Assembly (NCBI GenBank): GCA_945971245.1
Contig: CAMFOZ010000001.1
Location: 140-64,139, forward strand
Direction: 5' to 3'
Length of the DNA: 64,000 bases
DNA from: an uncultured Lactobacillus sp.
GTDB taxonomy: Bacteria > Bacillota > Bacilli > Lactobacillales > Lactobacillaceae
In this document: piece by piece, positions 3,114 to 56,409 of the stretch
Position numbering within the stretch: position 1 is the stretch's first letter
Layout: every line of letters begins with the position of its first letter
Translations under genes and position numbers: made by a program
Notes under the pieces: model-generated
Seen by the model: only the letters and a program-made list of their open reading frames with translations
What the model was told of the DNA's origin: nothing
The model's database searches: none

Positions 3114-3989
3114 CTAGTTAAGGTAAACAAACCGAAAGTGAAAGGTAACATCGACATCATCGTAGCCGAAGATCTTAATGTCGTTCCAGCCAGGAGCTAA
3201 CCGCATCCAAGCATAATTGCTATTAAGGTTATCAATTTCTCCATTCTTGTAGACATTAAGATCACTAAATACGAGCTTATCTTCAGGCTCAATACTACCG
3301 CTATAGATGATTTCATCCCCAGTGGTCTGATTAACCATGTCAAAATGACCATTATATCCTGTCACAATGATTTGTAATGGATATCTTTGTAGCGGATCAA
3401 TGGTGATATCACTAGCGTTGTAGACCTTGAAGTAATGTTGGTTCACAAAGTGATATTTCAGATCCTGACCGTTAGGCAGATTCATGCCGTACTGCCACAA
3501 GTCTTTTTGATATTCCATAAGATCATCGCTATATGCATACGACCATTTAACTCCAGAAGGGTTGTCCCACGGAATCGTAAATTGAATATCATGGGATTGG
3601 TCTTCTTGAGAAGCAATCGTATAGGTGCTTGGCCGAACAAAGGCGATCTTACCGGGTTCAGCATCGGTTCGAATACGGTATAGACCTTTTTGAGAAAAGA
3701 ACTGGGCGATTTCGTGCTTCTTCATTTTGTAATCGTACCAATCACCAAAGTGAAGCCAAAACCGACCAGTTATCGTTGTCTTATCGTATTGAGAATAGGA
3801 ATATACCTGGCCATCTAATCCAGAATCAGCCGTATAGTTGTTGGCTAATACCGGATTAGTGTCATCATCAAGATAACGCAGACCTGCTGTGATGTTTTCA
3901 GCATCAATTTCATCACCATCAGGAGGCTTAATGAACAGCTTTGGCCAGTTATATTTCAAAGACTTGATGTCTAAATCTCTTCCAGTCAT
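3114..3989 (-). CDS. distal tail protein (Dit)
   Basis: 291-aa ORF directly after the tape measure gene. Position and size are typical of siphovirus Dit. Confidence 0.7.
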   Translation of the reverse strand: MTGRDLDIKSLKYNWPKLFIKPPDGDEIDAENITAGLRYLDDDTNPVLANNYTADSGLDGQVYSYSQYDKTTITGRFWLHFGDWYDYKMKKHEIAQFFSQKGLYRIRTDAEPGKIAFVRPSTYTIASQEDQSHDIQFTIPWDNPSGVKWSYAYSDDLMEYQKDLWQYGMNLPNGQDLKYHFVNQHYFKVYNASDITIDPLQRYPLQIIVTGYNGHFDMVNQTTGDEIIYSGSIEPEDKLVFSDLNVYKNGEIDNLNSNYAWMRLAPGWNDIKIFGYDDVDVTFHFRFVYLN

Positions 3990-4000
3990 CTATTCACCTC

Positions 4001-7000
4001 CTAAAATGATAATCGTTGATAGTCACTCAACAACGTGTCCTTAGCCGTCTGCTTGTAACGTGCCATTGGATCGTTGGCTGAGTTAGTTGCACCAATTAGC
4101 TTACCTAATAAACTAATCATTTCTGAGTTTTGCTTTACCAAAGCGTTAAACCGCTCAATTACGGTGTCATAACGCTTCTTACTTTCCTCAGAGTTGTTGG
4201 CGTAGCGATCAGGCAATCCTGAACCACCGCCATCTTTTTCCATTCGAGTTAAGGTAGCATCAATCATTTGACGAGCACGAGGGCGCTTGTTGATATCCAT
4301 TGGAATAATGGATTCAAGCTCATTGCCTTCTGCCATTTCATATAGGCCGTGTTGGTTAACAAAACCACCATCAGCCCATCCATGACCGTTACCAACGTTA
4401 CCCCAACCACCTTCGCCACCACGATTAAGAGTGGCAATGGCGGCAAGGATTTGGTCATAACCAGACCAGATGTTGTGGTGCCCAGGCACGGCATCTGCTT
4501 CAAAAGTCGATCGTTTGAATTGAAGTAAACCAAGAGCACGACCAGATCCATCTCCATCAGGGTCATCACTTGGGCCTTGCTGAGGAAGCTTTTCATTACC
4601 ACCAGATTCGGTTTGGATCTGACGAAGTAACTTACCGATCTGTACTTCACTCAAATGAACACCCAATTTAGCAGCGGCAGATAAAATAACCGGACGCCAG
4701 TCACCATTAACGGGTTCCTTCTGCTCGCCTAATAGATCTTTCAACTTGTTGGCAATTCCAGTAGCAAAGGCAATTGCTTCCGCTTTACCGAGTGATGGGT
4801 AAATTGGCGCACCATCCCAATGAGTCTTTTGAAGGATTAACTGCTTTGAAGCTTGCTTGGGGTTCTTTTCGAAGAGTTGGGAAATCTTATCCATTTCTTC
4901 GTCGGACATATTACCTTTATCGTACCGATGCACACCCAAGGAATTCATAAAGGTATACGTCTGCTCACCAGACATAACTTTCGTCCCTCGAGGAGCATTC
5001 GGAATCAAGGTATTCCGGCTTTGTGGAATGAATGCTTGACCATTCGGCAGAAGAACTAATTCCTTCCAGTGTGGCCGAACGGAATCGTTGACCAGCATGT
5101 TACCACCAGGGTGGCCACCAATGTCTTTAGTACCATTAGCGTAGTTGATCTTTTCAAGCTTCTTGTCACCACCAAAGTCGCCGATAACAGCGTTAATCCC
5201 AGTGATACCTTGGTTTAACCGCCGGATGATACCACGAGAAGCGGTCCGAGCATAACCAGGGAGCTTGTTAAAGCCCACACGCATGTAATCACGCACCGCA
5301 TCGACCCAAGTCTTCCATGCCTTCAAGTGTGCTGATGTGAACTTATCTTCATCAGACCGCATTTGGCTGAATTTTGATTGTTCAGTATCAATAACCTTGT
5401 TTAATGCATGGCTAGCAGTTGGGTTAAGCCGATTCCACGTGTCTTTCCAATCACGGTTAAACGTACTCTTGAATGAGCGTAGATCACGTTTAATCGAGTT
5501 AACACGATGACGGAAAGTTGAGGCCCAGTTGTATTTGCCGTTCATAGAACGACTAGCCAGCTGAGATTGAGTCAACATTTCACGACCGAATGGATACCGA
5601 CGTAACGTCCGATAAAGTGAACGAGAATCGTTCCCTGCTCGAGTAAGCCCATTATTCTTTCGGTTAAACGGACGCAACGAGCGATTTAACCGAGTGAATG
5701 CAGTTGATGCATTGCGCAATGGCTTAGGTAATTGCCGCCATGCACGTGCATTCTGTTGTGCTTCCCGAGATAGCAGTCGTAGATTCTTTGTTAGTCGTGA
5801 CTTATTAATTGAGCGTCCAATGTTATTGAAATAGCGAGTAACGTTAACTCGAATTAATCGTCTAAATGAGGTGTAAAGCTGTCTGGATGACCGACTAATT
5901 TGTGTAAACGTCCGTCGAATATTTACACGTTGTAGTTTGCGGAAATCATTAGTTAAGCCACGCACGGCAGACCGAACACGGTTAATTTGTTTAAGCTGAG
6001 CTGATGAAGTGTTGCCAGCTTTAGAGCCACCAGAATGGCCGCCACGAATCTTATCGATCATTTTGCCGATTCCGCGTGCGGCTTTGCCTGCTACTTTGAA
6101 TGGCCATTCAAGGATCTTAGCTAATCCTCTTGCAGCAATAGTTGCTCCCTTCTTAATTACAGGCCAAGCTTTACCCAGAGTGCGGCCAATTGCTTTACCA
6201 GCAGTACCACCAATTGCACCACCAAGAATAGAACCGGCGACAGTACCGATTGGACCAAAAGCAGATCCTAAAGTACCACCAACACCGGTACCGATAGCGC
6301 CACCAGTAGTTTGTCCTAATGACTTACCAACGGCTACAGCTCTGTTCCGTTTAGAACTAGATCCTAACGCCGCAAACAAGTCAACAGCACCAAACGCAAT
6401 AGTAGCGGCGCCACCGATCTTAGTACCAACAAATCGACCAATACCGCCTAAACGACTGCTTTTAACAGCCATTCCCATTCGGCTGATAAAGCTGCCACCA
6501 GTTTTAGCACCGGCCGCCTCTGCTTCTTTAGGGGCATTTTCAAAGACTGCCTTAGTTGGGATAGTCTTTTTGCCTTCTTCTACAGCTTTACCTGTGTTCT
6601 CAGTAAACGAACGACCAGTTGCTCGACCAGAGTCTCTGGCTTCACTAGGAGTATTTCGGAAAGTATCTTTAACACTAACCTTTTTGCCATTACGAGTTGC
6701 TGAATCGTGAACATTACTGGAGAAGGCACTACCGGTTTCCTTACCACTACGGGCGGCTTCGTCTTTAGAGCCGTCAAACATCCGCTTGGTTGAAACGTGC
6801 TTGCTATTGCTCTTGACCGACCGATCAACATTATCAGTAAATGTCTTACCGGCCCTAGTACCATCATTAGCAATTCCCCGTTCGTCTACGCCCGGTTTAA
6901 CACGCCATGACTTGATTTTGCTAACCGCACCCTTAAAGGCAGAAACAACCTTTTTACCAGCAGCGGTAACCATGTCCAAATCAAGCAATCCGCCAGTAAA

Positions 7001-12997: not shown

Positions 12998-14131
12998 CTA
13001 TTTTGACGCTACTTCTGCGATACGGAAGGCGTTAGAAAGCTTGATTTGGTGATCCATCCAAGCAGTAACAACAAAGTAGTTGATACCAGTCTTAACATCC
13101 TTATCTTGGTCGTAGAGAGTGTTGATGTCGTAGTTGTATTGACTGTATGAGAAGTCACCAACGATAGGTTTTACAGCGGCATCAGTGAATACAACTGGCT
13201 TGCCAAGCACTTGTGATGGTTGAGCACCGTAAAGGGTTGCTGAACCGTTAGCCAAAGTCCGAATGATCTTCAGGTAGTCCTTGTAGCTCATAACGATAGT
13301 TGCGTTTTCACGGTATGCTTCGTGAAGATCGGCAATAGCGTTAGTGATAGCTTCGTACAGATCAGCGCCAGATACGCTCTTGATGTTGTTTGAAGCATCG
13401 TAGAAGGACATGTGCTTTTCAGCTTCACTGGTTGGTGCAGGGTTAAAGGCTACTGAACGTTCCTTGACAGTGACACCGTTGCGCAGACCGTTTTCTACGT
13501 ATTGAGTCAAGTTAGCGTCAGAGCCCAAAAGAACAGTTTCGGACATGCCGACCATAACCTTGAACTTGTTACGAGTGAAGGCTACAGTTTCACCCTTTGC
13601 TTCAATTTCCTTGGCCGTGTCGGTGTCTTGGATGAATGAGTCATCGCCCAGAGTGAAAGTCAGCCGTGGAATTTCCAGGTTAGGGATTTGAGTAATCGTA
13701 GAAAGCTGCCGCAGTGGGTTAGTTTCATCCGGTTGAGTAATGATGTTGGTAGATACGGTCTTAGGCAGGAACTTGTTACCACCAGTAGTGTCGTTGTCGC
13801 CTAATGCTTCGTATACGTTACGACTAACAGCTTCCTTAGCCATGGTGTTACGAACCAATTCAGCAAAAGCCTTATCACGCTTTTGTTCAGGGGTTAAAGT
13901 GTTAACTTCCTTTGCAGGCTTCAGGTTCTTCTTTTCTTCGGCTTCTGCCTTTTCCATTTGCTTTTTAGCAACTTCGTAGCGTTCCTGTGCGGCATCTACT
14001 ACCTTTTGTTGTGCAGTGATGTCTTCGGTTGCTACTTGTGGGTTAGCAAGCATTTCGTTTAACTTTTCGTTAGCTTGCTTAGCTTCATCCGCCATATCCA
14101 TGGCGTTCTTTTTAATTTGATAAAAGTTCAT
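12998..14131 (-). CDS. major capsid protein (HK97 fold family)
   Basis: 377 aa. Coiled-coil delta-like N-terminus, then capsid body. Follows the ClpP-type protease. Confidence 0.9.
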   Translation of the reverse strand: MNFYQIKKNAMDMADEAKQANEKLNEMLANPQVATEDITAQQKVVDAAQERYEVAKKQMEKAEAEEKKNLKPAKEVNTLTPEQKRDKAFAELVRNTMAKEAVSRNVYEALGDNDTTGGNKFLPKTVSTNIITQPDETNPLRQLSTITQIPNLEIPRLTFTLGDDSFIQDTDTAKEIEAKGETVAFTRNKFKVMVGMSETVLLGSDANLTQYVENGLRNGVTVKERSVAFNPAPTSEAEKHMSFYDASNNIKSVSGADLYEAITNAIADLHEAYRENATIVMSYKDYLKIIRTLANGSATLYGAQPSQVLGKPVVFTDAAVKPIVGDFSYSQYNYDINTLYDQDKDVKTGINYFVVTAWMDHQIKLSNAFRIAEVASK

Positions 14132-16388: not shown

Positions 16389-17726
16389 TTAATCAAATGA
16401 GATATATGTTGAAACCGGCCCGTCATCTTCGGGTTCTACCAACATGTCGATCACTGATACATGCGCATCTAGCGCCGCCGCAAAGCCATCAATTTTACGT
16501 GATTGTGAAGTCTTAGTTGGCAACCAATTATCATTCCGGTCTTGCCGTAAATGTACGTTGTTGAGGTACCACTTAAACATTGATTGCTCATTGAATACAA
16601 CCTTGCCATCCAGCAGAAGCTCTTTGAAGTTCTGCATTGGTCCACCAAGGGTTACAAACCCTTGCCGAACCTTTTCGGTAGTAAAGCCAGCTTCTTCTAG
16701 CTCTTTATTGAGGCGCAATGCCTTAGCAGGGTCGTAATTTATTTGGACGATGTTGTATTTCTCGGCTTTTTCTCTGAACCAGTCAAGTACGTAAGAATAG
16801 TCGACATAATCTCCAGGAATAATTGTGACATCCCCATCGTGTTCCCACTTTCTAATTCGTTCAGGGTTCTTGTCACGTTCATAACGAGCGTGTGGAATCC
16901 ATGAATGTTCCAACACAAAAACGCCACCATCATCTAACGGAAACTCAAGACAAGCAGAAGTAAAGTCCTCTGTGTCCGATAGATCGTAACCACCAATGCA
17001 GTCACGGTCCATAAGCTCATTTAGATCAAAGTGACGTGTATTTTTATTTAAGATTTCGGGAGTAATGAAGCTTAATTCATCAACTTCCGAGAAGATGTTG
17101 AACCGCTTGGTTAACCAATCGGCAAAACGAGCAGGCACACGGCGGTCGTCTTTGAAGTCGCTAATCATGTCGGCCAATTGCATTAAGCCAATGTTTGGAT
17201 TGGCCTTAACCCACTTGGTTGGGTCGTTGACTTCTTCCTTATCGTCTAAGCACGCAAGGTAATAGAAGGTTCGCGTGTCAATGTCATCGTCATAATTATC
17301 AAGAGTATCGTGCCCCTGATCGACCATATCCACCAAAGGGCCGTCCAAAACGTAACCAGCAGTCGTGATATAGACGATTAATGGCTGTGTACGTGTCCCG
17401 CGAGAGTTTTTCATGACGTTGATAAGCGAGTAGTCCTGGTATTCGTGAATTTCATCGAATACAGCAAAGTGGACGTTCTCACCATCTTTGTTACTCTTTT
17501 CAGCAGACATGGCCATGATCTTACCGCCCGTCTTTGGATAGCGAATTTCACTTCGGTTAGGAACAAACCGTTCAGATAACCAAGGCGATTTTTGGATCAT
17601 GGTCCGTGAGCCTTCAAAAAGCAGACGTGATTGTTGCTGAGAATTGGCTAAAAAGTAGACGTTTGGGCCGTTTTCCCCGTCAAAGCCGGCCATATAGTCG
17701 GCTAAACCCGATTCCAACTCAGTCTT
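16389..17726 (-). CDS. terL: terminase large subunit, exon 2
   Basis: Continues ...GRKNG|KTELESGLADYMAG... after splicing. Carries the Walker B-like VFDEIHE motif and the nuclease domain. Confidence 0.9.
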   Translation of the reverse strand, partial: KTELESGLADYMAGFDGENGPNVYFLANSQQQSRLLFEGSRTMIQKSPWLSERFVPNRSEIRYPKTGGKIMAMSAEKSNKDGENVHFAVFDEIHEYQDYSLINVMKNSRGTRTQPLIVYITTAGYVLDGPLVDMVDQGHDTLDNYDDDIDTRTFYYLACLDDKEEVNDPTKWVKANPNIGLMQLADMISDFKDDRRVPARFADWLTKRFNIFSEVDELSFITPEILNKNTRHFDLNELMDRDCIGGYDLSDTEDFTSACLEFPLDDGGVFVLEHSWIPHARYERDKNPERIRKWEHDGDVTIIPGDYVDYSYVLDWFREKAEKYNIVQINYDPAKALRLNKELEEAGFTTEKVRQGFVTLGGPMQNFKELLLDGKVVFNEQSMFKWYLNNVHLRQDRNDNWLPTKTSQSRKIDGFAAALDAHVSVIDMLVEPEDDGPVSTYISFD

Positions 17727-18019
17727 CATTGTTATTAACCATAGGCTTTTTATCCTATGCTCTGGAGGTCGCCCTCATTTTCATCGGTTGGTCAATTCCA
17801 ACCCAGCTTAGCGTACATTTTCAATCGTTATGATTGCCGGACACTCTTGGGGGAGCTATATTTGTTCATCCCCTACGCGTTACAATGCTTACCAGCCTTG
17901 CGCTATCTGGTAAGTTATCTCGGTATTTTCTCGTTTTCGGTGCAAAATAAGCTGAAATTGCACCGATAAATCGAGGTTTCCACCGATTTTGCCCGATTTT
18001 AGAACGGCGAGATGAGTTT
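17727..18019 (-). ncRNA. group I intron (ORF-less, 293 nt) in terL
   Basis: 5' exon ends in U (GAACGGU) and pairs with intron GCCGUUC (nt 12-18), giving a U-G pair at the splice site. The intron ends in G. Ligation restores NGKTEL. Multiple 5-8 bp hairpins, including a GCGA tetraloop. Confidence 0.8.
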
Positions 18020-30437: not shown

Positions 30438-32138
30438 CTACTTAAGGCTGTCGTTTTTGAAGTTTTCTACATTACCAACGCTTTGACCGTTTACTACACT
30501 TGCTTTGAAGCTTAGTTTGTCACCAGGACGAACAAGGTTAGCATTGTCATAATCGTTAGTGTTAACGGTGTAAACAGTGTTGCTGTTCTGGAGTGTGAAC
30601 ATTACTTTGTTCTTGTTTGAAACAACCGCAGCACGATCAACGACACCGCTGACTTTCTTATCTTTTGCTCCCGGCGTATTTTTAGCAGTAGCACCATCAT
30701 TAACCAGCGCCTGCCGGAACGCATCCAACGCGCTCGTTGGATTGTTCCCGCTGCCGTAGAGTGATTGATCTTTAGCATCAAGATAGTAGTAACCACGAAT
30801 TGCATGAGAACTGTCAAGGATTGTCATGACCCACGTTGGGCGTCCGTTAACGTTGTATAGAACTGGCATCTTAGCTTTCCACTGTTGAGCCTTGTAGTTT
30901 TGGTTAGCATTCTCTTTTGCACCGGTGCTATCCATAATTCCGTTGGCTGAGTAGTAGGTCAGTTTCCCTGTTCGAGCGTTAATCATTGAGTAACCCATTG
31001 CTGAGTCAGCTTTGCTATTAGGATTGGTAAAGTCCGTAAAGTAGCTGATTGAACCATCACGGTTAAAAATTGATGTCACACCATCTTCGGGGCCATTATT
31101 AGTTGGCTTAATAACATCAGTCTTGCTCCAATTCCAGAAGCCTTGCTTGTATTTACCAAAGATAGTGTTCATATCAGCTGCGGCATCACTTGTGATACCT
31201 TCATCAACGAACTTTGGCAATGACTTTAACGAGTAAGTGTTTTGCTCTCCGGTCTGTGCATTCATAACAACAACATGAAGTTTTTGGTAGTTAACACGGT
31301 GACTAAAGGCTTCTGACTTGTAGACTGTTTGTACCCAAAACGGAGTTCCACTATTATCAATTTCAAGTTGCGGTGTACTCATCGTTAACCATTCGGGGTT
31401 GTGACGGTAAATTTGGCGATCAACATCATAGCCAAAGTAGGCACTCTTAGCGTACTTATACGGTTTCTTGACAAATTCCGGTTCAGCATTTTGATTGGTT
31501 GCATCTACGATAAAGTAACCGGGGATTTTGCCTGCGCGCCGCATCGCAAAGAAGCCGTCATAGCTAAGTGGAATGATATATACTGGCTTGCCTTTGTAAT
31601 ATTGAGCCTGCACCGTGTCTGGTGTGTCATAGTATTGACTGTTAGGGATGTCAGACATCGATTTATGAACCCGGTTCAATACAGTATTAGGAGCTAAAGC
31701 GACCGGTGTTTCGTTTCGCTTAAACGTTGGTGCTTCAGTTGATTTGCTGTATTGTTTTGAGATTGATTTCCACGTTGGCTTAACCGACATAGCTGAATGA
31801 ACTTCACCAGCAAGGCCAGCGAAGAACACGACCACAAAAGCAATGATCCCAATTCCAAAAACATTCAAGCCGTTTTTGCCCGTTGCCCTGTAAGAATCTG
31901 GAACGAAACAGATAGCAATTGCTTCATAAATTGCTCCCCAAAAACCATTACTGATTAAAATACTCAGCAGGTTTCTTGATGGTAATCCAAAATAAACACG
32001 CACAAATGTGAAAATGGCAAAAGACGCCAGCAAAATACAATTCGTAATTAGCCAACCGTTATGCTTATGTTCACAGATAACATTTATTAGGAACAAAATG
32101 ATTGGCCCCAGCATATATACCAAAGTCATAGCTAACAT
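30438..32138 (-). CDS. polytopic membrane protein with large extracytoplasmic domain (566 aa)
   Basis: About 4 N-terminal TM helices, then a ~440-aa soluble region. The ATG overlaps the upstream stop (TAATG at 32140-32136). Confidence 0.7.
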   Translation of the reverse strand: MLAMTLVYMLGPIILFLINVICEHKHNGWLITNCILLASFAIFTFVRVYFGLPSRNLLSILISNGFWGAIYEAIAICFVPDSYRATGKNGLNVFGIGIIAFVVVFFAGLAGEVHSAMSVKPTWKSISKQYSKSTEAPTFKRNETPVALAPNTVLNRVHKSMSDIPNSQYYDTPDTVQAQYYKGKPVYIIPLSYDGFFAMRRAGKIPGYFIVDATNQNAEPEFVKKPYKYAKSAYFGYDVDRQIYRHNPEWLTMSTPQLEIDNSGTPFWVQTVYKSEAFSHRVNYQKLHVVVMNAQTGEQNTYSLKSLPKFVDEGITSDAAADMNTIFGKYKQGFWNWSKTDVIKPTNNGPEDGVTSIFNRDGSISYFTDFTNPNSKADSAMGYSMINARTGKLTYYSANGIMDSTGAKENANQNYKAQQWKAKMPVLYNVNGRPTWVMTILDSSHAIRGYYYLDAKDQSLYGSGNNPTSALDAFRQALVNDGATAKNTPGAKDKKVSGVVDRAAVVSNKNKVMFTLQNSNTVYTVNTNDYDNANLVRPGDKLSFKASVVNGQSVGNVENFKNDSLK

Positions 32139-34180
32139 TATTTATCCTCCTTTGGTTCTGCTAGTAAATCAGTAAACGTTGATTGGGTTAACTTGTCTGG
32201 GCTTAAACCAATGATGTCCGGTGCATCATAGTTAAACTGCACATAAGCCTGCCCGTTCTTAGTCACCATATGGTTATCTAGAATATGTGCTGAACTTCTG
32301 AGTACACTTTTCAACTCATCCTCGTCACTAATTACGTGGCCACCCAACAGCTTAATCAAGTCAGTAACCATATAGGTGTTATCCAGCTGATGTCGGAAGA
32401 TTTCGATAAGCTTTGTTGTCGTGTCGCTAACACCCGGCACCCGAACGTTACCAAAGCTAGTGGCAGTAAAGCCAATCTTCACACCCTCATCGGTCGGCAA
32501 AACAACCATCAGCATCTTAGACATTTCTTGTGGTGAAATACTATCGTGGAACAAGGCCGACTTAGAATCGATGATTTGTGTGGCAACACCTTGCTGACTG
32601 TTACGATCGACATTTGCCCCAGTAATGAAGACATCAAACTTAACGTCCCCATTGCTATGATAGTCATTCACCGAAACAATCATCGGTGCAGTCAGGGTAT
32701 TTGCCTTGATCTTGTAAAATTCAGCAGCGTATCCATATGGGTTGAGATGAGTCATATCCCCTGAGAACGTCACTGTCCCGCTGTATGAGCCATTCCATCC
32801 ATAGTGTTCACCATCAAGTGACATCATATGCAGATCAAGGTCAGCGGGCGTATTCCAGGCAACACCCAATGAAACATCCTTACCCTTGAATTCGTATGAA
32901 CTCATGTACGGTAACGTACCTACAAAATCTTTACCCGATGTCGGCAAAGCGTAGTTGATGCCTTCGGGAATGTAGAACACTTTATCGCTCCAATCTCCGT
33001 AGCGCCGTTTTAGTTCATTGACGATCATCTGGCGAACCCGGTTTTTTCGTTCAGTCTTGTTCGTCCAATTGACAATTTTAAGGCGCCAATCCTTGTTATC
33101 CAGCTTTAGGTAGCTCTTGCCGTTACGAATTTTGAAGTACCTTGCATTCATAGCGCCGTCTTTGCGTATCATGGCATTCATGATCTTGATCAATTTGTAA
33201 ATCGGAGTCTTAGCCATTGATTTACGAATTGCATCCAGTGAGACATCAAGATCCATAACATGCTCCAGCGGCGACTGCTTGCGTGGCACATACATACGCT
33301 TAGATAACTTCATTGCACGGTTAATCAGCGTCTTATCAGTGAATCGCTTACGAAGAACCAGGTACAGCTTCCGGTAACGAGTGATATTCTTAGCAACCGT
33401 TTCAATGCCGAATTGCTTAACATACTGGTTAAATGCTTTTTCTTGCCGCGCATGTGCATCACGTCCTAGCCAGTCTAACTTGGTTAGCATAGCCCGCGAC
33501 TTAATTAAAAGTGTGCTACCGGTGCCCAGATAAATCAGGTAACGAGTAAATTCATCAAAGCTCTTTGGTAAAAGATTGAGCTCTTTACACATCCGGCACA
33601 TAAACTCACGATTGCTAATTTGGTCAAGATAGTCATTAACTGGCAACTTACATCCATTAATAACGATAATAAGGTTGCTTTGTGTTACTTCATCCAGTGC
33701 CATGCCGCTTGTAAGCATGGTCTTTACCTTTTCTCCGATCTCTTCAACCGATAAGGCTTCGATATAGGTTAGGTCGTGTTCGACGTCAATATCGAGTCCT
33801 TTGAGATATTCTGGTTCGTACCCCACAATGTCACTACGATCAATTCCACGGTCATACGTGCTCATGTAATGAGCCAATTGGTCCATGCGTAGTTGCAACT
33901 CGCTACGGTTTTCTACATCACTAAATCGCTTATAGAACGTCGAGTTGACTTTTGCCATATCCACGCCGTATTCGCCAACAGCAGTGTTGATAATATCTTT
34001 AGATTCAAAAAACGAGCGATCAACAAACGCATCTGTATCAAATACCACTCCTTTTGAAATGGCCATAAGGCGTTCAGCTTTCAGCCCGGCGTGCTCTTGG
34101 CGATTACCATTTTTAAGCACAACAGCTTTGAAAAGTTTAATTGTTGCATGGTTAAGTTGGTATGCAGTCATGCGAGTCAT
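32138..34180 (-). CDS. large protein (680 aa) with TerD-like domain near residues 425-520
   Basis: SLGVAWNTPADLDLHMMSLDGEHYGWNGSYSGTVTFSGDMT...PMIVSVNDYH parallels the TerD pattern GLGWD..DLDASAFLL..FIFYNN..GSVTHTGDN..IIFVVTIHD. Alternative start ATG 34171. Confidence 0.7.
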   Translation of the reverse strand: MTRMTAYQLNHATIKLFKAVVLKNGNRQEHAGLKAERLMAISKGVVFDTDAFVDRSFFESKDIINTAVGEYGVDMAKVNSTFYKRFSDVENRSELQLRMDQLAHYMSTYDRGIDRSDIVGYEPEYLKGLDIDVEHDLTYIEALSVEEIGEKVKTMLTSGMALDEVTQSNLIIVINGCKLPVNDYLDQISNREFMCRMCKELNLLPKSFDEFTRYLIYLGTGSTLLIKSRAMLTKLDWLGRDAHARQEKAFNQYVKQFGIETVAKNITRYRKLYLVLRKRFTDKTLINRAMKLSKRMYVPRKQSPLEHVMDLDVSLDAIRKSMAKTPIYKLIKIMNAMIRKDGAMNARYFKIRNGKSYLKLDNKDWRLKIVNWTNKTERKNRVRQMIVNELKRRYGDWSDKVFYIPEGINYALPTSGKDFVGTLPYMSSYEFKGKDVSLGVAWNTPADLDLHMMSLDGEHYGWNGSYSGTVTFSGDMTHLNPYGYAAEFYKIKANTLTAPMIVSVNDYHSNGDVKFDVFITGANVDRNSQQGVATQIIDSKSALFHDSISPQEMSKMLMVVLPTDEGVKIGFTATSFGNVRVPGVSDTTTKLIEIFRHQLDNTYMVTDLIKLLGGHVISDEDELKSVLRSSAHILDNHMVTKNGQAYVQFNYDAPDIIGLSPDKLTQSTFTDLLAEPKEDK

Positions 34181-34189
34181 CCTTTCATT

Positions 34190-34226
34190 TCAAAATAAAA
34201 AAAGGTAGCTCAAAAAGAGCTACCTT
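34190..34226 (-). terminator. strong rho-independent terminator closing the RNA island
   Basis: 10-bp stem aaggtagctc / gagctacctt with a 5-nt loop, followed on the minus strand by UUUUUUUUAUUUUG. Confidence 0.85.
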
Positions 34227-34371
34227 GCTTAAGCGTAAAAGGCGGAGCGTATTCATTAAGTTTTGCAGACTTGTAATAAATAGGAACGCTCTTGTGCCTT
34301 TTGAATGTTGTGACTAGACGTAAAAATATCTCAGACATGATGTAAATATAGGAACGTCTTTGTGTCACTGA

Positions 34372-34440
34372 TGCCGATCGATGGAGTCGAACCACCTGAA
34401 GTACGAATTGAAGAGCCACACTTTTGCTCCGAGCATCGAC
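34372..34440 (-). ncRNA. 69-nt tRNA-like element a (Thr-CGU-like anticodon loop, no variable loop)
   Basis: Acceptor GUCGAUG/GAUCGGC (6/7 bp). GAGC-9nt-GCUC D-like hairpin. UUCAA-UUCGUAC-UUCAG arm (4/5 bp). T arm GGUGG-UUCGACU-CCAUC directly abuts the anticodon arm. Confidence 0.5.
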
Positions 34441-34443
34441 GTA

Positions 34444-34508
34444 AAGGCATAGCTTGTACTATTACAAAAAGGAGCTTCTCAACTCCTTTATATTGATGTC
34501 TATGCCTT
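34444..34508 (-). repeat. structured module 1: outer helix aaggcatag/ctatgcctt around the conserved hairpin ggagcttctcaactcctt
   Basis: Core at 34471-34488. Outer helix 34444-34452 / 34500-34508. Confidence 0.7.
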
Positions 34509-34509
34509 A

Positions 34510-34582
34510 TTGTGGGAGCTGGACTCGAACCAGCGAATCACGGTACCAAAAACCGTTGCCTTACCAACTTGGCTATCTCACA
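34510..34582 (-). tRNA. tRNA-Gln (anticodon UUG)
   Basis: Acceptor UGUGAGA/UCCCACA (one A-C mismatch). D arm GCC-AAGUUGGUAA-GGC as in bacterial tRNA-Gln. Anticodon arm ACGGU-UUUUGGU-ACCGU. T arm GCUGG-UUCGAGU-CCAGC. No encoded CCA. Confidence 0.85.
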
Positions 34583-34721
34583 GTAAACGCCTTAAATAGG
34601 CGAAGCTTCTTTGATCTCCCATACCTACTCTTAGCGTGCCCGTCGTCACGAGCCCCTCTGGTGAGATTATTAGCTAACCGCCTCACTTTTTTGACGGCGA
34701 TGATTTTTCCCAAGAGGGTTA

Positions 34722-34835
34722 TGCTGATGAGTGGATTCGAACCACTAGCCAAACGGGAGCGGCCCGGTTGGCTCCTGCACTTTGCAGCCGAAACTTGGTT
34801 GCGACCCAAGGTATCTACTTTGCTGTGCCATCAAC
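34722..34835 (-). ncRNA. 114-nt tRNA-like element c (good acceptor and T arms, oversized core)
   Basis: Acceptor GUUGAUG/CAUCAGC (7 bp). T arm AGUGG-UUCGAAU-CCACU. Internal hairpins CUUGG-GUCGCAA-CCAAG, CUGCA-AAG-UGCAG and AGCCAA...UUGGCU. No D stem. Confidence 0.5.
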
Positions 34836-34836
34836 G

Positions 34837-34928
34837 TTTTCAAAGCATGGAGTGTGTATTTTAAAGACGTGTTACCAACAGTAAAGAGGAGCTTCTCAAC
34901 TCCTTTTTATTTATTCATGCTTTGAAAA
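34837..34928 (-). repeat. structured module 2: 13-bp outer helix around the second copy of the conserved hairpin
   Basis: ttttcaaagcatg (34837-34849) pairs with catgctttgaaaa (34916-34928). Core at 34888-34905. Confidence 0.7.
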
Positions 34929-35032
34929 ATATGGATTATGATCATCTGCCACCATCGCGTCGGCTTTGCACCGGATTCCATACGTATTAGTTTATTATCT
35001 AGGAAGAATGACTACACTTGTCGTGAAGCCAA

Positions 35033-35105
35033 TGAACGCGGTGGGCTTCGGTCCCACGACCCTCGGATTAAAAGTCCGATGCTCTACCAGCTGAGCTACA
35101 CATTC
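35033..35105 (-). tRNA. tRNA-Lys (anticodon UUU) with non-canonical T loop
   Basis: Acceptor GAAUGUG/CGCGUUC. D arm GCUC-AGCUGGUA-GAGC. Anticodon arm UCGGA-CUUUUAA-UCCGA. T stem GUGGG/CCCAC, but the loop is ACCGAAG rather than UUCRANN. Confidence 0.75.
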
Positions 35106-35130
35106 AAATTAAAGTCAGCAAGATAGCTGA

Positions 35131-35556
35131 CTACATAACGTCGATATCAAGTTTCTGTGCTAGATTTTCTAAAAACTCATTACGCAACTCGTAAGCTCTC
35201 GTAGTGCCGACCGGGACAATGTGCTGATCACACAATTCTGGAATTGTTCGTTTAGCATAATTGTCAAAGTATAATTTCTGAATCAACTTAACGGTGATAG
35301 TCCCAGCTTCATCAAGGCAATCATCAATTGCCTGACGTTCAAGTTTTAATCGTTGAAGCCGTCGATCATCATTAATGGTAATCACAAGATTGGAAACCGG
35401 GTCGCTTCGCTTATTCAAAGCACGGCCACCGCCAACATTCTCGTCATCGTCCATTGTCGGATTTTCAAGTTCTTCTTCACGTTTCTTAATATATTGGGAG
35501 AGTTTAGGATAATCGCGTAATACGTCTTCTAGCACATGGCGAATTGATCGTCTCAA
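35131..35556 (-). CDS. ArpU/RinA-family late transcriptional regulator
   Basis: 141 aa, TTG start with GGGAGTGG SD. The LRDYPKL...LERQAIDDCL...KLIQKLYF pattern is typical of the ArpU family. Confidence 0.75.
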   Translation of the reverse strand: MRRSIRHVLEDVLRDYPKLSQYIKKREEELENPTMDDDENVGGGRALNKRSDPVSNLVITINDDRRLQRLKLERQAIDDCLDEAGTITVKLIQKLYFDNYAKRTIPELCDQHIVPVGTTRAYELRNEFLENLAQKLDIDVM

Positions 35557-35601
35557 TATTCCACTCCCAATATTAAGTTGTTAAGGGCCATTAAAGACCG
35601 A

Positions 35602-35675
35602 CGCCGAATGCCCGACTTGAACGGGCGACACTCGATTTAACAGACCGATGCTCTAACCAGCTGAGCTAATTCGGC
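35602..35675 (-). tRNA. tRNA-Asn (anticodon GUU)
   Basis: GCCGAAU-UA-GCUC-AGCUGGUUA-GAGC-A-UCGGU-CUGUUAA-AUCGA-GUGUC-GCCCG-UUCAAGU-CGGGC-AUUCGGC-G. All arms canonical. Confidence 0.9.
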
Positions 35676-35682
35676 GAATATT

Positions 35683-35751
35683 ACCAAGCGGCCGGATTCC
35701 AACCGACATTTTGCATGACCAGATCTGTCTAAGTTATCTATCTTCGCTTGG
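35683..35751 (-). ncRNA. 69-nt tRNA-like element g (CAU in a loop, weak anticodon stem, no variable loop)
   Basis: Acceptor CCAAGCG/CGCUUGG (7 bp). T arm GUCGG-UUGGAAU-CCGGC. The putative anticodon arm AUCUG-GUCAUGC-AAAAU has only 3/5 bp. No clear D stem. Confidence 0.45.
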
Positions 35752-36231
35752 TAATAAAGAGATCTCATTTTTAAGCTCACAAATTTATTACACGGATAGG
35801 AGCTTGACTCTAAGTTCGCCAGAATCGCCGTGGCTTTCTAATTACTAGAAATTGCTAAGATAAGGGAGCTACCCTTAATATTCTAGGCTGGGATTTGCAC
35901 CCAACAAGCGAATTTCTAACGGAGAGAGCAAGGTTCTATAGCGAGGCATCCTCCGGCTGTACCTATTGAGCAACTAGAATACAGAATTGATTATTTAGTT
36001 GTGATGACCCTGACGAGAGTCAATAGCCGCCGTTGGATTCGAACCAACTGTTGTGTCCACGTTACACGCGGCTGCCTTAAAGAGATAATCTCGAATCGAA
36101 AAAGCCTAGAATTTAGTCAATATTAGGTGTACAGGTTAAGCGATTGATGCTCTGTCAAAGCACATTATTAAGCTTATACCCGACGATAAATTAGTACAAT
36201 GAATACAGGTTCAACGTGAATAACTTTTTTG
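35752..36231 (-). ncRNA. candidate large structured ncRNA (ROOL/GOLLD-like or novel); boundaries approximate
   Basis: No ORF >=60 aa on either strand. 10-bp long-range helix 35880-35889 / 36103-36112. Several local hairpins. Adjacent to phage tRNAs. Confidence 0.4.
36024..36073 (-). ncRNA. 50-nt D-armless tRNA-like minihelix i
   Basis: AGCCGC/GCGGCU acceptor-like stem, GUGU-AACGUGG-ACAC hairpin, and perfect T arm GUUGG-UUCGAAU-CCAAC. Confidence 0.45.
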
Positions 36232-36756
36232 TTAATCATCATGACACCGGGCCTTTGCCTCGTTAATTAACGTTCTTCCGGAATCTACTCTTGACTTAAC
36301 GGCATCAAACGCTACCACAAACTCTTCCCATGCATTGTTAGCATTGAAGTAGGTAGTTCCTGGATTAATCATTCGCTCATTAGCACTCAGCATCTTAACC
36401 AGGTCCTGGTGAATCTTCTTGGCCGTTTCAACTTTTTTCTTATTGGAAAATTGCTCTAGCGCTCGGTTTATTGCTGATTTAATCTCTGGGTTGGTGTGCG
36501 TATTAACGGGAATATCGTCATACGCATTCTCAGAATACACAGTTACCACTGCCCGCTTCTTTGGATCCACAATCACCACAATATCATTTAGCCGATACTT
36601 GGTTCGATTTTTGCTTTGTGTTTCAACATATGTGCATTGTTGAAGTAACCGTTGAATCCAAGTATCAAGCTCCTTATTGGTAATATTGAACCGGGTAAGA
36701 ATACGATCCTTAGCATGGGCAGTAACGGTATACATGGCGTAATCTCTAACACTCAA
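36232..36756 (-). CDS. hypothetical protein (174 aa)
   Basis: ORF track; TTG start with GGAGGTGA SD. Confidence 0.55.
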   Translation of the reverse strand: MSVRDYAMYTVTAHAKDRILTRFNITNKELDTWIQRLLQQCTYVETQSKNRTKYRLNDIVVIVDPKKRAVVTVYSENAYDDIPVNTHTNPEIKSAINRALEQFSNKKKVETAKKIHQDLVKMLSANERMINPGTTYFNANNAWEEFVVAFDAVKSRVDSGRTLINEAKARCHDD

Positions 36757-55128: not shown

Positions 55129-55212
55129 GCATTAGAGTTAAAAATACTGCTGACACATTATTTTTAACTCCTTCATTATAGCATTGGTATTTATATGAAT
55201 GGAGGAATTATT

Positions 55213-56409
55213 ATGTGGGTTCACCCATATAAAAGTAACGAAGAACGTAAAGGTAAAATCGTCGAAGTGACTCATTACCAGTTTCTCGAACGATATAAGG
55301 ACCCAAAAACCGGTAAAAATAAAACGGTTTCCGTTTCTTATGACCGTAACACACCGCAAGTTCGCAAAGAAGCAACGAAGAAGCTGGAGAAAAAGATAGA
55401 GAAGAAGATTCGAGAAGTTGAAGCGAGCAACACAGATATTACGTTAGAAGAGCTGAAAGATGAGTTCTTGGATTACTATAAGCACCACGTTGCATTGAGA
55501 ACATACCTGATTAATAAGTCTGTTCTTAAAACAACCTGCAAGATTCTCGGCGGTGACACACTTGCTCGGCGTATAACGACACCTATGCTTAACAAATATT
55601 TTGACGATCGTCTCTACAACGAAGACAAGCCAGTCTCAAACAGCACAGTAAGAAATACTCGTAAAGCATTATCGCTTGCCTACAAGTTTGCTAATCGCTA
55701 TGGGCTCTTAACCGTTAATCCCGTCAAAGACACACAAGTTAACTGGCGGGACGAGGTTGATGCCCGTCGAGATCGTATTGAAAATAAGTACCTGACGCGC
55801 GATGAATACCATAAGATCTTGGATTACTGCGCTAAAAAGCATAAGCAATATTATGTTGACGCATTTGAACTTCAATATCTCACCGGACTACGCTTCGGTG
55901 AATTAATTGGCTTACAGGTTAAAGACGTTATCAAACAAGATGGACGGATCTATCTTGATATCAACGGAACTATGGTAGTAACTGATGATCACTCTAAACA
56001 AGTTAAATCAGATCGAACCAAAAGCATTTCTGGTATTAGGCGGATCATTCTTTCTAAAGACGCTACTGAGATCGTGGAGCGCAACATTAAGGGCAAGAAA
56101 GCCAATGATTGGATAATTACCCGGCCCGCATCCTATAATCTCCCAGAACGTCCCCTGAAGCTAAATACGATAGACACATTTCTTAGGAGAACAGCTAAGA
56201 GATTGGGGATTGAAAAGAATGTTACTACCCACTTCTTCCGACACACGCACGTTTCAAACCTCGCCGATTTGGATGTTCCCCTTCGAGTAATTCAGAAACG
56301 GGTTGGCCACGCCAACAGCGAAATTACTCGGCGAATATATCTACACGTAACTAAGCGTACAAGCGAAAAGTTCGTTGATATGATTGACTCAATAGACAAG
56401 CTAAATTAG
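55213..56409 (+). CDS. int: tyrosine integrase
   Basis: C-terminal HFFRHTHVS...RVGHAN...RIYLH catalytic pattern. ATG 55213 with GGAGGA SD. Confidence 0.9.
   Translation: MWVHPYKSNEERKGKIVEVTHYQFLERYKDPKTGKNKTVSVSYDRNTPQVRKEATKKLEKKIEKKIREVEASNTDITLEELKDEFLDYYKHHVALRTYLINKSVLKTTCKILGGDTLARRITTPMLNKYFDDRLYNEDKPVSNSTVRNTRKALSLAYKFANRYGLLTVNPVKDTQVNWRDEVDARRDRIENKYLTRDEYHKILDYCAKKHKQYYVDAFELQYLTGLRFGELIGLQVKDVIKQDGRIYLDINGTMVVTDDHSKQVKSDRTKSISGIRRIILSKDATEIVERNIKGKKANDWIITRPASYNLPERPLKLNTIDTFLRRTAKRLGIEKNVTTHFFRHTHVSNLADLDVPLRVIQKRVGHANSEITRRIYLHVTKRTSEKFVDMIDSIDKLN

Follow-up and report, generated by a model that had tools for sequence, protein, structure and literature searches.

Conserved tRNA-like RNAs without a usable anticodon arm around the RinA-family regulator gene of a Lactobacillales prophage

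The tRNA-like fold is borrowed for end maturation by several small RNAs, such as the C4 antisense RNA of phages P1 and P7, the CI RNA of phage P4, the MHV68 vtRNA-miRNAs and mascRNA. Likewise, the tRNA-like domain of transfer-messenger RNA (tmRNA), which is processed by ribonuclease P (RNase P), has a reduced D region and no anticodon arm beside its acceptor stem and T arm. Here, we describe a set of tRNA-shaped RNAs from the minus strand of a 64,000-nucleotide (nt) stretch of DNA of an uncultured Lactobacillus sp. (GenBank assembly GCA_945971245.1, contig CAMFOZ010000001.1), referred to in the following as the window. It contains a prophage of about 55 kb, in which an RNA island at 34372-36073 separates the early from the late genes and surrounds an open reading frame (ORF) of the RinA family (DUF722) of late transcriptional activators. 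Beside three normal transfer RNAs (tRNAs), at least five units in this island, termed elements a, c, g, h and i, keep the upper half of the tRNA and cannot decode.

The tRNA islands of phage T5 and the mycobacteriophages resemble this locus in that they are tRNA clusters which vary between relatives and include tRNA-Lys and tRNA-Tyr; phage tRNAs, among them these two, rescue infection from tRNA-cleaving defence (PMC10264068, PMC11464382, PMC11555353). However, these islands consist of complete decoding tRNAs, whereas the units described here lack a usable anticodon arm and have structures under selection. YrlA is a non-decoding RNA with a T arm, a D arm and an acceptor-like stem that is found in bacteria and phages, and the Mycobacterium smegmatis representative can be cut by RNase P and receive a CCA end (PMC4201824). 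It is set apart by its Ro60-binding stem and the adjoining rsr gene; in our elements, by contrast, the acceptor stem is formed by the 5' and 3' ends of the RNA itself, and there is no Rfam match. As to a YrlA partner, no Pfam domain was found in the two large ORFs next to the island, and TROVE was not searched for in the rest of the window. Unlike tmRNA, the elements have no G3:U70 pair, pseudoknots or tag ORF, and ARAGORN makes no tmRNA call in the whole window at default settings and only a spurious permuted one at an 80% threshold. They differ from C4 and CI RNAs in that they give no C4 match at E-values up to 10, have no conserved antisense target and occur in Firmicutes rather than enterobacteria, and from the MHV68 vtRNA-miRNAs and mascRNA (10.64898/2026.01.19.700226) in that the latter belong to mammalian hosts. 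The ROOL and GOLLD RNAs of Lactobacillales prophages, whose function is unknown, lie near tRNA islands (PMC5737381, PMC12286853) and thus share the niche of our elements, but the latter are small, modular and tRNA-shaped. Finally, tRNA gene fragments are likewise partial tRNA-like sequences mishandled by annotation tools, but they are one-sided, typically 3' halves, and not under selection (PMC9897764), whereas both acceptor strands are present and covary in the elements described here. These elements are outside the classes of canonical tRNAs, neutral pseudogenes, tmRNA, C4/CI, YrlA and ROOL/GOLLD RNAs.

Using either an ARAGORN call or the RF00005 gathering score of 29 bits as the criterion for a canonical tRNA, exactly three tRNAs are found in the whole window, tRNA-Gln, tRNA-Lys and tRNA-Asn, all on the minus strand (Table 1). 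Among these, a sequence-only reading of the island had placed four tRNA mimics, and both the sequence and single-sequence folds bear it out: elements a, c, g and i are present with their acceptor stems and T arms, and neither ARAGORN nor Rfam folds any of them as an ordinary tRNA. A fifth tRNA-like unit, element h, had been overlooked, as had two conserved structured RNAs that are not tRNA-like, element d and a spacer RNA behind element c. ARAGORN gives no tRNA call for a, c, g, h or i at default, -ps, -ps80, intron or mitochondrial settings. In a permissive Rfam scan of 33800-36600, a, g, h and i have no match at E-values up to 10, and c reaches 17 bits against RF00005 (E = 5.2), in an alignment that holds large insertions and is carried by its acceptor stem and T arm. 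All five have an acceptor stem of 6-8 base pairs (bp) on a 5-bp T arm with a T-loop, and none has the standard anticodon arm of 5 bp and 7 nt: a has a linker in its place, g and i have a single short hairpin, and the loops of h and c are abnormal. Because ARAGORN and Rfam fail on all five and a usable anticodon arm is missing, we call these units non-decoding.

Their clustering in the island is real and far above chance. In our scanner, a match needs a T stem of 5 bp with G-C as its closing pair, a heptamer resembling a T loop and, immediately 3' of the T arm, an acceptor stem with 6 or more of its 7 pairs formed. Seven matches were obtained on the minus strand of 34373-36106 (i, h, g, tRNA-Asn, c, tRNA-Gln and a) and a single one on both strands of the remaining 62 kb of the window. 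In 40 dinucleotide shuffles, 2.7 matches were found per window, which corresponds to 0.036 expected in the island (Poisson P ~1e-14).

Table 1. Positions of the features discussed in the text
Sequence	Feature	Position	Strand	Basis or remark
Window	Element i, 50-nt mini tRNA-like RNA	36024-36073	-	fold and covariation
Window	Element h, 102-nt cloverleaf-like RNA	35879-35980	-	scanner; homologue covariation
Window	Element g, 69-nt RNA	35683-35751	-	scanner and conservation
Window	tRNA-Asn(GUU), canonical	35600-35676	-	ARAGORN; Rfam 64.9 bits; ends 43 nt upstream of the rinA-like start codon
Window	RinA-family (DUF722) late transcriptional activator gene	35131-35556	-	141 amino acids; tRNA-Asn on one side, tRNA-Lys on the other
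Window	tRNA-Lys(UUU), canonical	35032-35106	-	ARAGORN; Rfam 62.8 bits; starts 24 nt after the rinA-like stop codon
Window	Element d, three-way-junction RNA	34930-34982	-	closing stem UAUGGA/UCCAUA and two hairpins
Window	Long-range stem around terminator-like hairpin	34836-34929	-	
Window	Promoter-like site	34885-34858		
Window	Element c, 114-nt tRNA-shaped RNA	34722-34835	-	fold and covariation
Window	Post-c structured spacer, 84 nt	34638-34721	-	conserved core of spacer 34583-34721
Window	tRNA-Gln(UUG), canonical	34510-34582	-	ARAGORN; Rfam 60.3 bits
Window	Second copy of terminator-like hairpin	34466-34497	-	downstream of tRNA-Gln
Window	Element a, 69-nt RNA	34372-34440	-	fold and conservation
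Window	Candidate operator or promoter motif, two copies	34275-34369	-	
Window	Intrinsic terminator	34202-34226	-	
Window	ORF680	32138-34180	-	680 amino acids
Window	ORF566	30438-32138	-	566 amino acids
Window	Large terminase gene	16389-17729	-	
Window	Major head protein gene	12998-14131	-	
Window	Integrase gene	55195-56409	+	
Lactobacillus phage Sha1 (L060, NC_019489)	59-nt mini-tRNA	2521-2579		unannotated
Lactobacillus phage Sha1 (L060, NC_019489)	81-nt h-like unit	2745-2825		unannotated
Phage Lb of L. brevis ATCC 367 (L061, NC_047983)	57-nt mini-tRNA	2500-2556		unannotated
Phage Lb of L. brevis ATCC 367 (L061, NC_047983)	Two long units	2633-2761, 2828-2962		unannotated
Latilactobacillus phage TMW 1.1393 P1 (L062)	tRNA-like units	2517-2758		unannotated; 'hypothetical protein' coding sequence overlaps part
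Relative L022	Element d homologue	3426-3480		directly after the regulator
Relative L028	ROOL RNA (RF03087)	5205-5746		117 bits

For the analysis of conservation, we collected some 30 contigs from gut metagenomes of pig and chicken (numbered with the prefix L), which were reached through homologues of the regulator protein. The close relatives among them came from exact-protein look-ups; protein-anchored scans of IMG/VR, GTDB genomes and JGI metagenomes gave distant ones only. Element i is the most diverged unit, with 74-83% identity among relatives. It consists of a 6-bp acceptor stem, a 4-bp GUGU/ACAC hairpin, a 3-nt linker and a T arm with a UUCGAAU loop, with A73 followed by UU, and its minimum-free-energy fold is the tRNA-like fold (z = -2.2). 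The sequence-only reading had recognized its acceptor-like stem, hairpin and T arm but denied it a D arm; we read the hairpin as a D-arm analogue rather than an anticodon arm, because its loop contains GG in every relative. In the RNAalifold consensus of six distinct homologues, half of the 16 pairs are changed on both sides, and 97.9% of the pair cells are paired, compared with 89.9% in shuffles. Only 0-1 of 500 column shuffles reach the observed values, and shifting the pairing partners drops pairing to 29-58%.

Element c has, as first described, a 7-bp acceptor stem (including one G.U pair) and a T arm with a UUCGAAU loop, with A as the discriminator base 73. Its interior, drawn at first as three hairpins, is recast by RNAalifold, which prefers a cloverleaf with a 4-bp GCAC/GUGC stem around one hairpin, followed by a 9-bp arm with a 5-nt loop; its single-sequence fold has z = -3.0. 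Its alignment comprises 36 pairs, four of them with compensatory changes, in the acceptor stem, the T stem and the 9-bp arm; 99.5% of the cells are paired, which none of 500 shuffles matches. The 5' part and the middle of the element, from behind the acceptor stem to the 9-bp arm, are nearly invariant, with a single change in one of six sequences. Element h, a nearly complete cloverleaf, has the acceptor stem AUUCUAG/CUAGAAU and an otherwise normal D arm, GCUC-AAUAGGUA-GAGC, with a C.C mismatch in the window copy. Its 5-bp 'anticodon' stem closes a loop of 26 nt, which measures 23 nt in the majority of relatives; the variable region has 15 nt, and the loop of the T arm, UGCAAAU, is unusual. 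In the h family, which includes homologues from L046, L051 and phage Sha1, 7 of 20 pairs show compensatory changes, and the motif CCUUGCUC(U/A)CUCCGUUAG is nearly invariant while the stems vary.

The remaining two units vary less. In element a, a 6-bp acceptor stem plus a G.G mismatch and a 5-bp D-like arm (GGAGC/GCUCU), both noted before, are followed by a 5-bp T arm with the loop UUCGACU and by A73 and U; the presumed anticodon-like loop UUCGUAC does not stand, since it lies in an unpaired 15-nt linker that replaces the anticodon arm. The element is 93-99% identical in 14 relatives, and all substitutions in its stems preserve pairing (U.G to C-G, U-A to U.G, G-C to G.U), none of them being two-sided. 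Element g has the expected acceptor stem (7-8 bp) and T arm (loop UUGGAAU), one internal hairpin and U as the discriminator base 73. It lies 6 nt upstream of tRNA-Asn in the window and 7 nt upstream of tRNA-Tyr in some relatives; only four relatives carry a copy, 96-99% identical and with one compensatory acceptor pair (C-G / U-G / U-A).

Thus, the acceptor and T-arm pairings are kept through compensatory changes and do not drift freely, and the changes in i, c and the h family suggest working RNAs under structural selection rather than dead tRNA genes. G.U pairs are seen solely in the minus-strand reading, which indicates an RNA rather than a DNA structure. The z-scores from folding are supportive for c and i and uninformative for a and h.

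These contigs share the order of the array. In the direction of transcription, it starts with ORF174, i and h, continues with the optional units g, tRNA-Tyr and tRNA-Asn to rinA, tRNA-Lys and d, and from there runs through either c or tRNA-Phe, the structured spacer and tRNA-Gln or a 72-nt tRNA-like unit, all three positions again being optional, to a and ORF680. These optional units are gained and lost between close relatives: some have tRNA-Phe in the slot of element c, and that of tRNA-Gln holds the 72-nt unit or nothing. While tRNA-Lys is constant in all close relatives whose contig covers its slot, tRNA-Phe, tRNA-Tyr, tRNA-Gln and tRNA-Asn are swapped (L006-L036 versus the window). The non-canonical units hence behave like canonical tRNA cassettes, being singly dispensable and recurrent. 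In L021, everything between the 3' ends of c and a, including a itself, is deleted, a product of recombination between the similar T-arm/acceptor sequences of the two elements. Furthermore, relatives with a tRNA-Asn have it at 97-100% identity but their regulator gene at only 76-90%, which suggests either frequent exchange or very strong constraint.

Similar units extend far beyond these relatives. In distant relatives, whose regulators are 30-62% identical to that of the window, the same scanner finds many mini-tRNAs of 43-60 nt on the regulator strand, composed of an acceptor stem of 7 bp, a short D arm whose loop contains GG, a linker of 3-10 nt and a T arm, and lacking an anticodon arm. 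A joint covariance model for all mini-tRNAs was dropped, as MAFFT misaligned their 5' halves. Three published phages, Sha1, Lb and TMW 1.1393 P1, carry tRNA-like units downstream of a RinA/DUF722 gene; the 81-nt unit of Sha1 has the same AAUAGGUA D loop and UGCAAAU T loop as element h, and the 57-nt minis score 46-47 bits with the Rfam tRNA model but receive no ARAGORN call. In several clades, a tRNA or mini-tRNA ends 33-48 nt before the regulator start codon, and the unit behind the regulator begins 22-27 nt after the stop codon in close relatives and about 5-100 nt after it in distant phages. Among the isolated phages of INPHARED, BLAST with the whole island returned canonical tRNAs only, and separate searches with i plus h, a and c returned no match; in IMG/VR, pattern scans for the h and i motifs picked up nothing but ordinary tRNAs or unrelated coding regions. 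In metatranscriptomes, related phages are represented by contigs that cover a, the stretch from d through tRNA-Lys to rinA, and h; one of these contigs joins h, tRNA-Asn and rinA. Our literature searches returned no description of conserved anticodon-less tRNA-like arrays in phages, which does not prove their absence.

What could these units do? We propose, with moderate confidence, that they are tRNA-derived, non-decoding 'top-half' tRNA mimics, which would be matured by tRNA enzymes and then act in trans. In this scheme, they would be co-transcribed with the real phage tRNAs and the rinA-like late activator as one RNA island; host RNase P would cut the 5' end of each unit, RNase Z would cut after N73, and the CCA-adding enzyme would cap the 3' end. 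This would release stable tRNA-shaped RNAs of 45-115 nt together with structured spacer RNAs, and would trim the rinA mRNA to a short, defined unit. The excised RNAs would then act in trans as accessory cassettes, through either their tRNA shape or a conserved insert. What we observe are the structures with their conservation and covariation, the modular distribution and the lack of an encoded CCA; transcription as one unit, the two cleavages, CCA addition and any action in trans are inferred.

Common to every family is the coaxial helix of acceptor stem and T arm, in many cases together with a D/T elbow, whereas the anticodon arm is lost or replaced. As the helix kept everywhere is the part that the maturation enzymes recognize, we infer processing by RNases P and Z. 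A CCA end is encoded in none of 95 distinct canonical and non-canonical units. N73 is mostly A, and most units have an A73-U74-U75 trailer: at position 74, U is found in 47 of the 77 non-canonical and 16 of the 18 canonical units, compared with a T frequency of 0.27 in the background, whereas C is found in 3 and 1 of them, respectively. In RNase Z substrates of Bacillus subtilis, U74 is reportedly favoured. Measured against the published requirements of RNases P and Z (PMC7479834), the units have all parts of a minimal substrate, namely some 12 bp of coaxial helix with a T loop, a discriminator N73 left unpaired and a CCA-less, mostly C74-free trailer. RNase Z is inhibited by C residues after the discriminator and by an encoded CCA (PMC7479834), and in the Streptococcaceae, related lactic acid bacteria, CCA-less tRNAs depend wholly on RNase Z (PMC8549757). 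Among the possible mechanisms, a processing signal has the best support, and some action in trans is likely. A role beyond that of a cleavage signal is indicated by the invariance of the 5' part and middle of c and of the CCUUGCUC(U/A)CUCCGUUAG motif of h amid varying stems, and excised RNAs with roles of their own are indicated because the units would be redundant with the real tRNAs as punctuation and because they are gained and lost like cassettes.

Several observations weigh against this proposal. Arm-deleted pre-tRNAs, which archaeal RNase Z accepts, were reportedly left uncut by the B. subtilis enzyme (PMC7479834), so that efficient cleavage of the most reduced units is uncertain. The minimum-free-energy fold of a is the tRNA-like fold, yet its z-score of about 0 sets it no lower than shuffled sequence, and h, with the same score, folds no better than its shuffles either; a and g vary so little that conservation is the main support for their structures. 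At 87-95%, several spacers match the elements in conservation, while the rinA coding sequence is only 77% identical, and recent recombination could have inflated sequence conservation in the island. Since the spacers are equally conserved, sequence conservation alone does not single the elements out, and the argument is one of covariation. The metatranscriptome contigs are assemblies without read ends and may include DNA. In a search of the prophage for antisense targets, the longest complementarities (c, 13 nt; a, 12 nt) do not exceed chance, and the target of c is not conserved in the other c-carrying relatives. A binding partner was likewise not found.

If the units were purely cis-acting punctuation, they would serve only as RNase P/Z cleavage signals that set the ends and stability of the rinA mRNA and neighbouring RNAs, and the excised pieces would be functionless. 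This account, which we regard as possible but doubtful, draws on the short, conserved distances at which tRNAs or tRNA-like units bracket the regulator in several clades and on the fact that, across families, the top half alone is conserved and the acceptor sequence is free to covary. The option of RNase P/Z punctuation had already been raised in the sequence-only reading, whose interpretation is partly supported here, as cleavage signals would fit the pattern of conserved and variable parts. However, in the window rinA is already flanked by real tRNAs, which makes five further signals redundant, and i, h, c and a are remote from all ORF boundaries; moreover, hardly any sequence change is seen inside c and in parts of h, and the dispensability of single units among close relatives fits accessory cassettes better than essential sites. 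It is unlikely, in our estimate, that the units are decoys or sponges that compete for tRNA-recognizing proteins, most plausibly defence effectors that read the acceptor end or elbow; this would be an extension of our proposal rather than an exclusive rival. Decoys, like parts of a larger RNA, had been options of the sequence-only reading too, and our results favour neither. The canonical tRNAs of the island and its relatives are those for Lys, Asn, Gln, Tyr and Phe, of which Lys and Tyr are supplied by phages against PARIS and retron effectors (PMC11464382, PMC11555353), the cassette-like turnover is typical of counter-defence loci, and the tRNA shape is kept while the acceptor sequence drifts. 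Yet the anticodon loop, the cleavage site of most characterized effectors (PMC10264068, PMC13056530), is missing from these RNAs, and there is neither a linked defence or partner gene nor an experimental hint. More broadly, we suggest only tentatively that Lactobacillales phages encode an undescribed class of anticodon-less, tRNA-scaffolded small RNAs, which, once matured by host tRNA enzymes, may act in trans as counter-defence decoys for immune effectors or toxins that read the acceptor end or elbow, or else as partners or cargo of the ROOL/GOLLD cages of this niche.

Three further explanations are much less probable. It is quite improbable that the units are domains of one or two large ornate RNAs with embedded tRNA-like modules, in the manner of GOLLD with its linker tRNAs: while conserved structures (d, the post-c spacer and, between d and c, a 13-bp stem) are densely packed in the non-coding island, a relative has a ROOL RNA in the matching region, and ROOL and GOLLD occur near prophage tRNA islands, with GOLLD able to hold tRNAs in its linker (PMC12286853), the window has no ROOL or GOLLD match at gathering score, nor at E-values up to 10 in 33800-36600. 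Furthermore, the units are shuffled, lost and swapped independently, a protein gene divides the island, and no long-range pairings between units are seen. That the units are tRNA pseudogenes, decaying in the course of phage tRNA-island turnover and conserved through recent divergence, was another option of the sequence-only reading, to which their location among real tRNAs, their clear tRNA derivation, the equally conserved spacers, the few changes in a and g, and the D-stem mismatch in the window copy of h would all be congenial. We consider it very improbable, and it is largely refuted, as the covariation in i, c and the h family argues strongly against neutral decay: element i has retained nearly complete pairing and eight compensatory pairs at 74-83% identity, and the same architecture recurs beside regulators that are only 30-60% identical, including those of phages Sha1 and Lb. 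Lastly, it is scarcely credible that the units are unusual functional decoding tRNAs with a giant anticodon loop, an intron or a suppressor role. ARAGORN does call the L046 homologue of h a 'tRNA-Stop(tta)', but this call requires an unpaired variable region of 30 nt, and the call is not conserved in the family; ARAGORN also calls odd tRNAs in TMW 1.1393 P1, and in the first hairpin of c, a stem of 5 bp closes a loop of 7 nt that includes U33 and A37, but a, g and i have no anticodon stem, and the prophage ORFs can be read through in the standard code.

Phage tRNA genes have lately been shown to be counter-defence tools, and ROOL and GOLLD are abundant and structurally spectacular neighbours of such genes. 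Conserved, modular, non-decoding tRNA shapes suggest that phages also use the tRNA fold outside translation. The units are widespread in Lactobacillales phages and are unannotated even in the published genomes of Sha1, Lb and TMW 1.1393 P1, a gap that arises as ARAGORN passes over these elements and the Rfam tRNA model picks up only the least degenerate ones. With short RNAs, inducible prophages and clear predictions for end mapping, the system is tractable, and it adjoins the ROOL/GOLLD problem: in L028, the ROOL RNA lies about 1.8 kb downstream of the RinA-like regulator, in the same niche as the tRNA-like array of the window.

The island contains further structured RNAs. Element d, one hairpin of which has a T-loop-like UGCAAAG loop, is not a top-half mimic of tRNA. 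It is found in all relatives whose contig extends that far, and its homologue in the distant L022 clade has a compensatory change in the closing stem. The post-c spacer adjoins the 3' end of c and precedes tRNA-Gln; in relatives, it is located behind c or tRNA-Phe. The whole spacer has a fold z-score of -3.6, and 4 of the 23 pairs in the RNAalifold consensus are compensatory; its single-stranded runs GGGAAAAAUCAUC and UUAGCUAAUAAUC are invariant, and no Rfam match was found at E-values up to 10. Given its position between two tRNA or tRNA-like units, it would be excised by RNase Z and RNase P. Together, d and the post-c spacer account for part of the high conservation of the spacers. Between d and c, a 13-bp long-range stem, UUUUCAAAGCAUG/CAUGCUUUGAAAA, surrounds a terminator-like hairpin, AAAGGAGUUGAGAAGCUCCU, and its loop encloses a promoter-like site; a second copy of the hairpin is present further downstream (Table 1).

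The chromosome beside the prophage is that of a Limosilactobacillus, the adjoining pyruvate kinase sharing 90% identity with the L. frumenti enzyme and 85% with the L. mucosae enzyme. The rinA-like ORF matches NCBIfam TIGR01636 with 79.5 bits (cut-off 31.9) and PHROG 36, and its relatives match PF05263. ORF174, which precedes the array, was considered as a tRNA-binding partner for its weak similarity to TIGR00451, which we take to be PUA-like; the match (E = 0.011) falls short of the cut-off, Pfam and PDB searches gave no backing, and the candidate was dropped. ORF680 and ORF566 are the first genes downstream of the island. They have no sequence match in Pfam, PHROG, NCBIfam or PDB and are kept in the relatives, some of which have a LemA-domain gene in exchange for ORF566. 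Right behind element a, the motif CACAA(A/G)A(G)CGTTCCTAT occurs in two copies, followed by a strong intrinsic terminator ahead of ORF680. The motif, a candidate RinA operator or late promoter, recurs behind the array in L022 and, in the looser form AACAGTTCCTAT, in L046.

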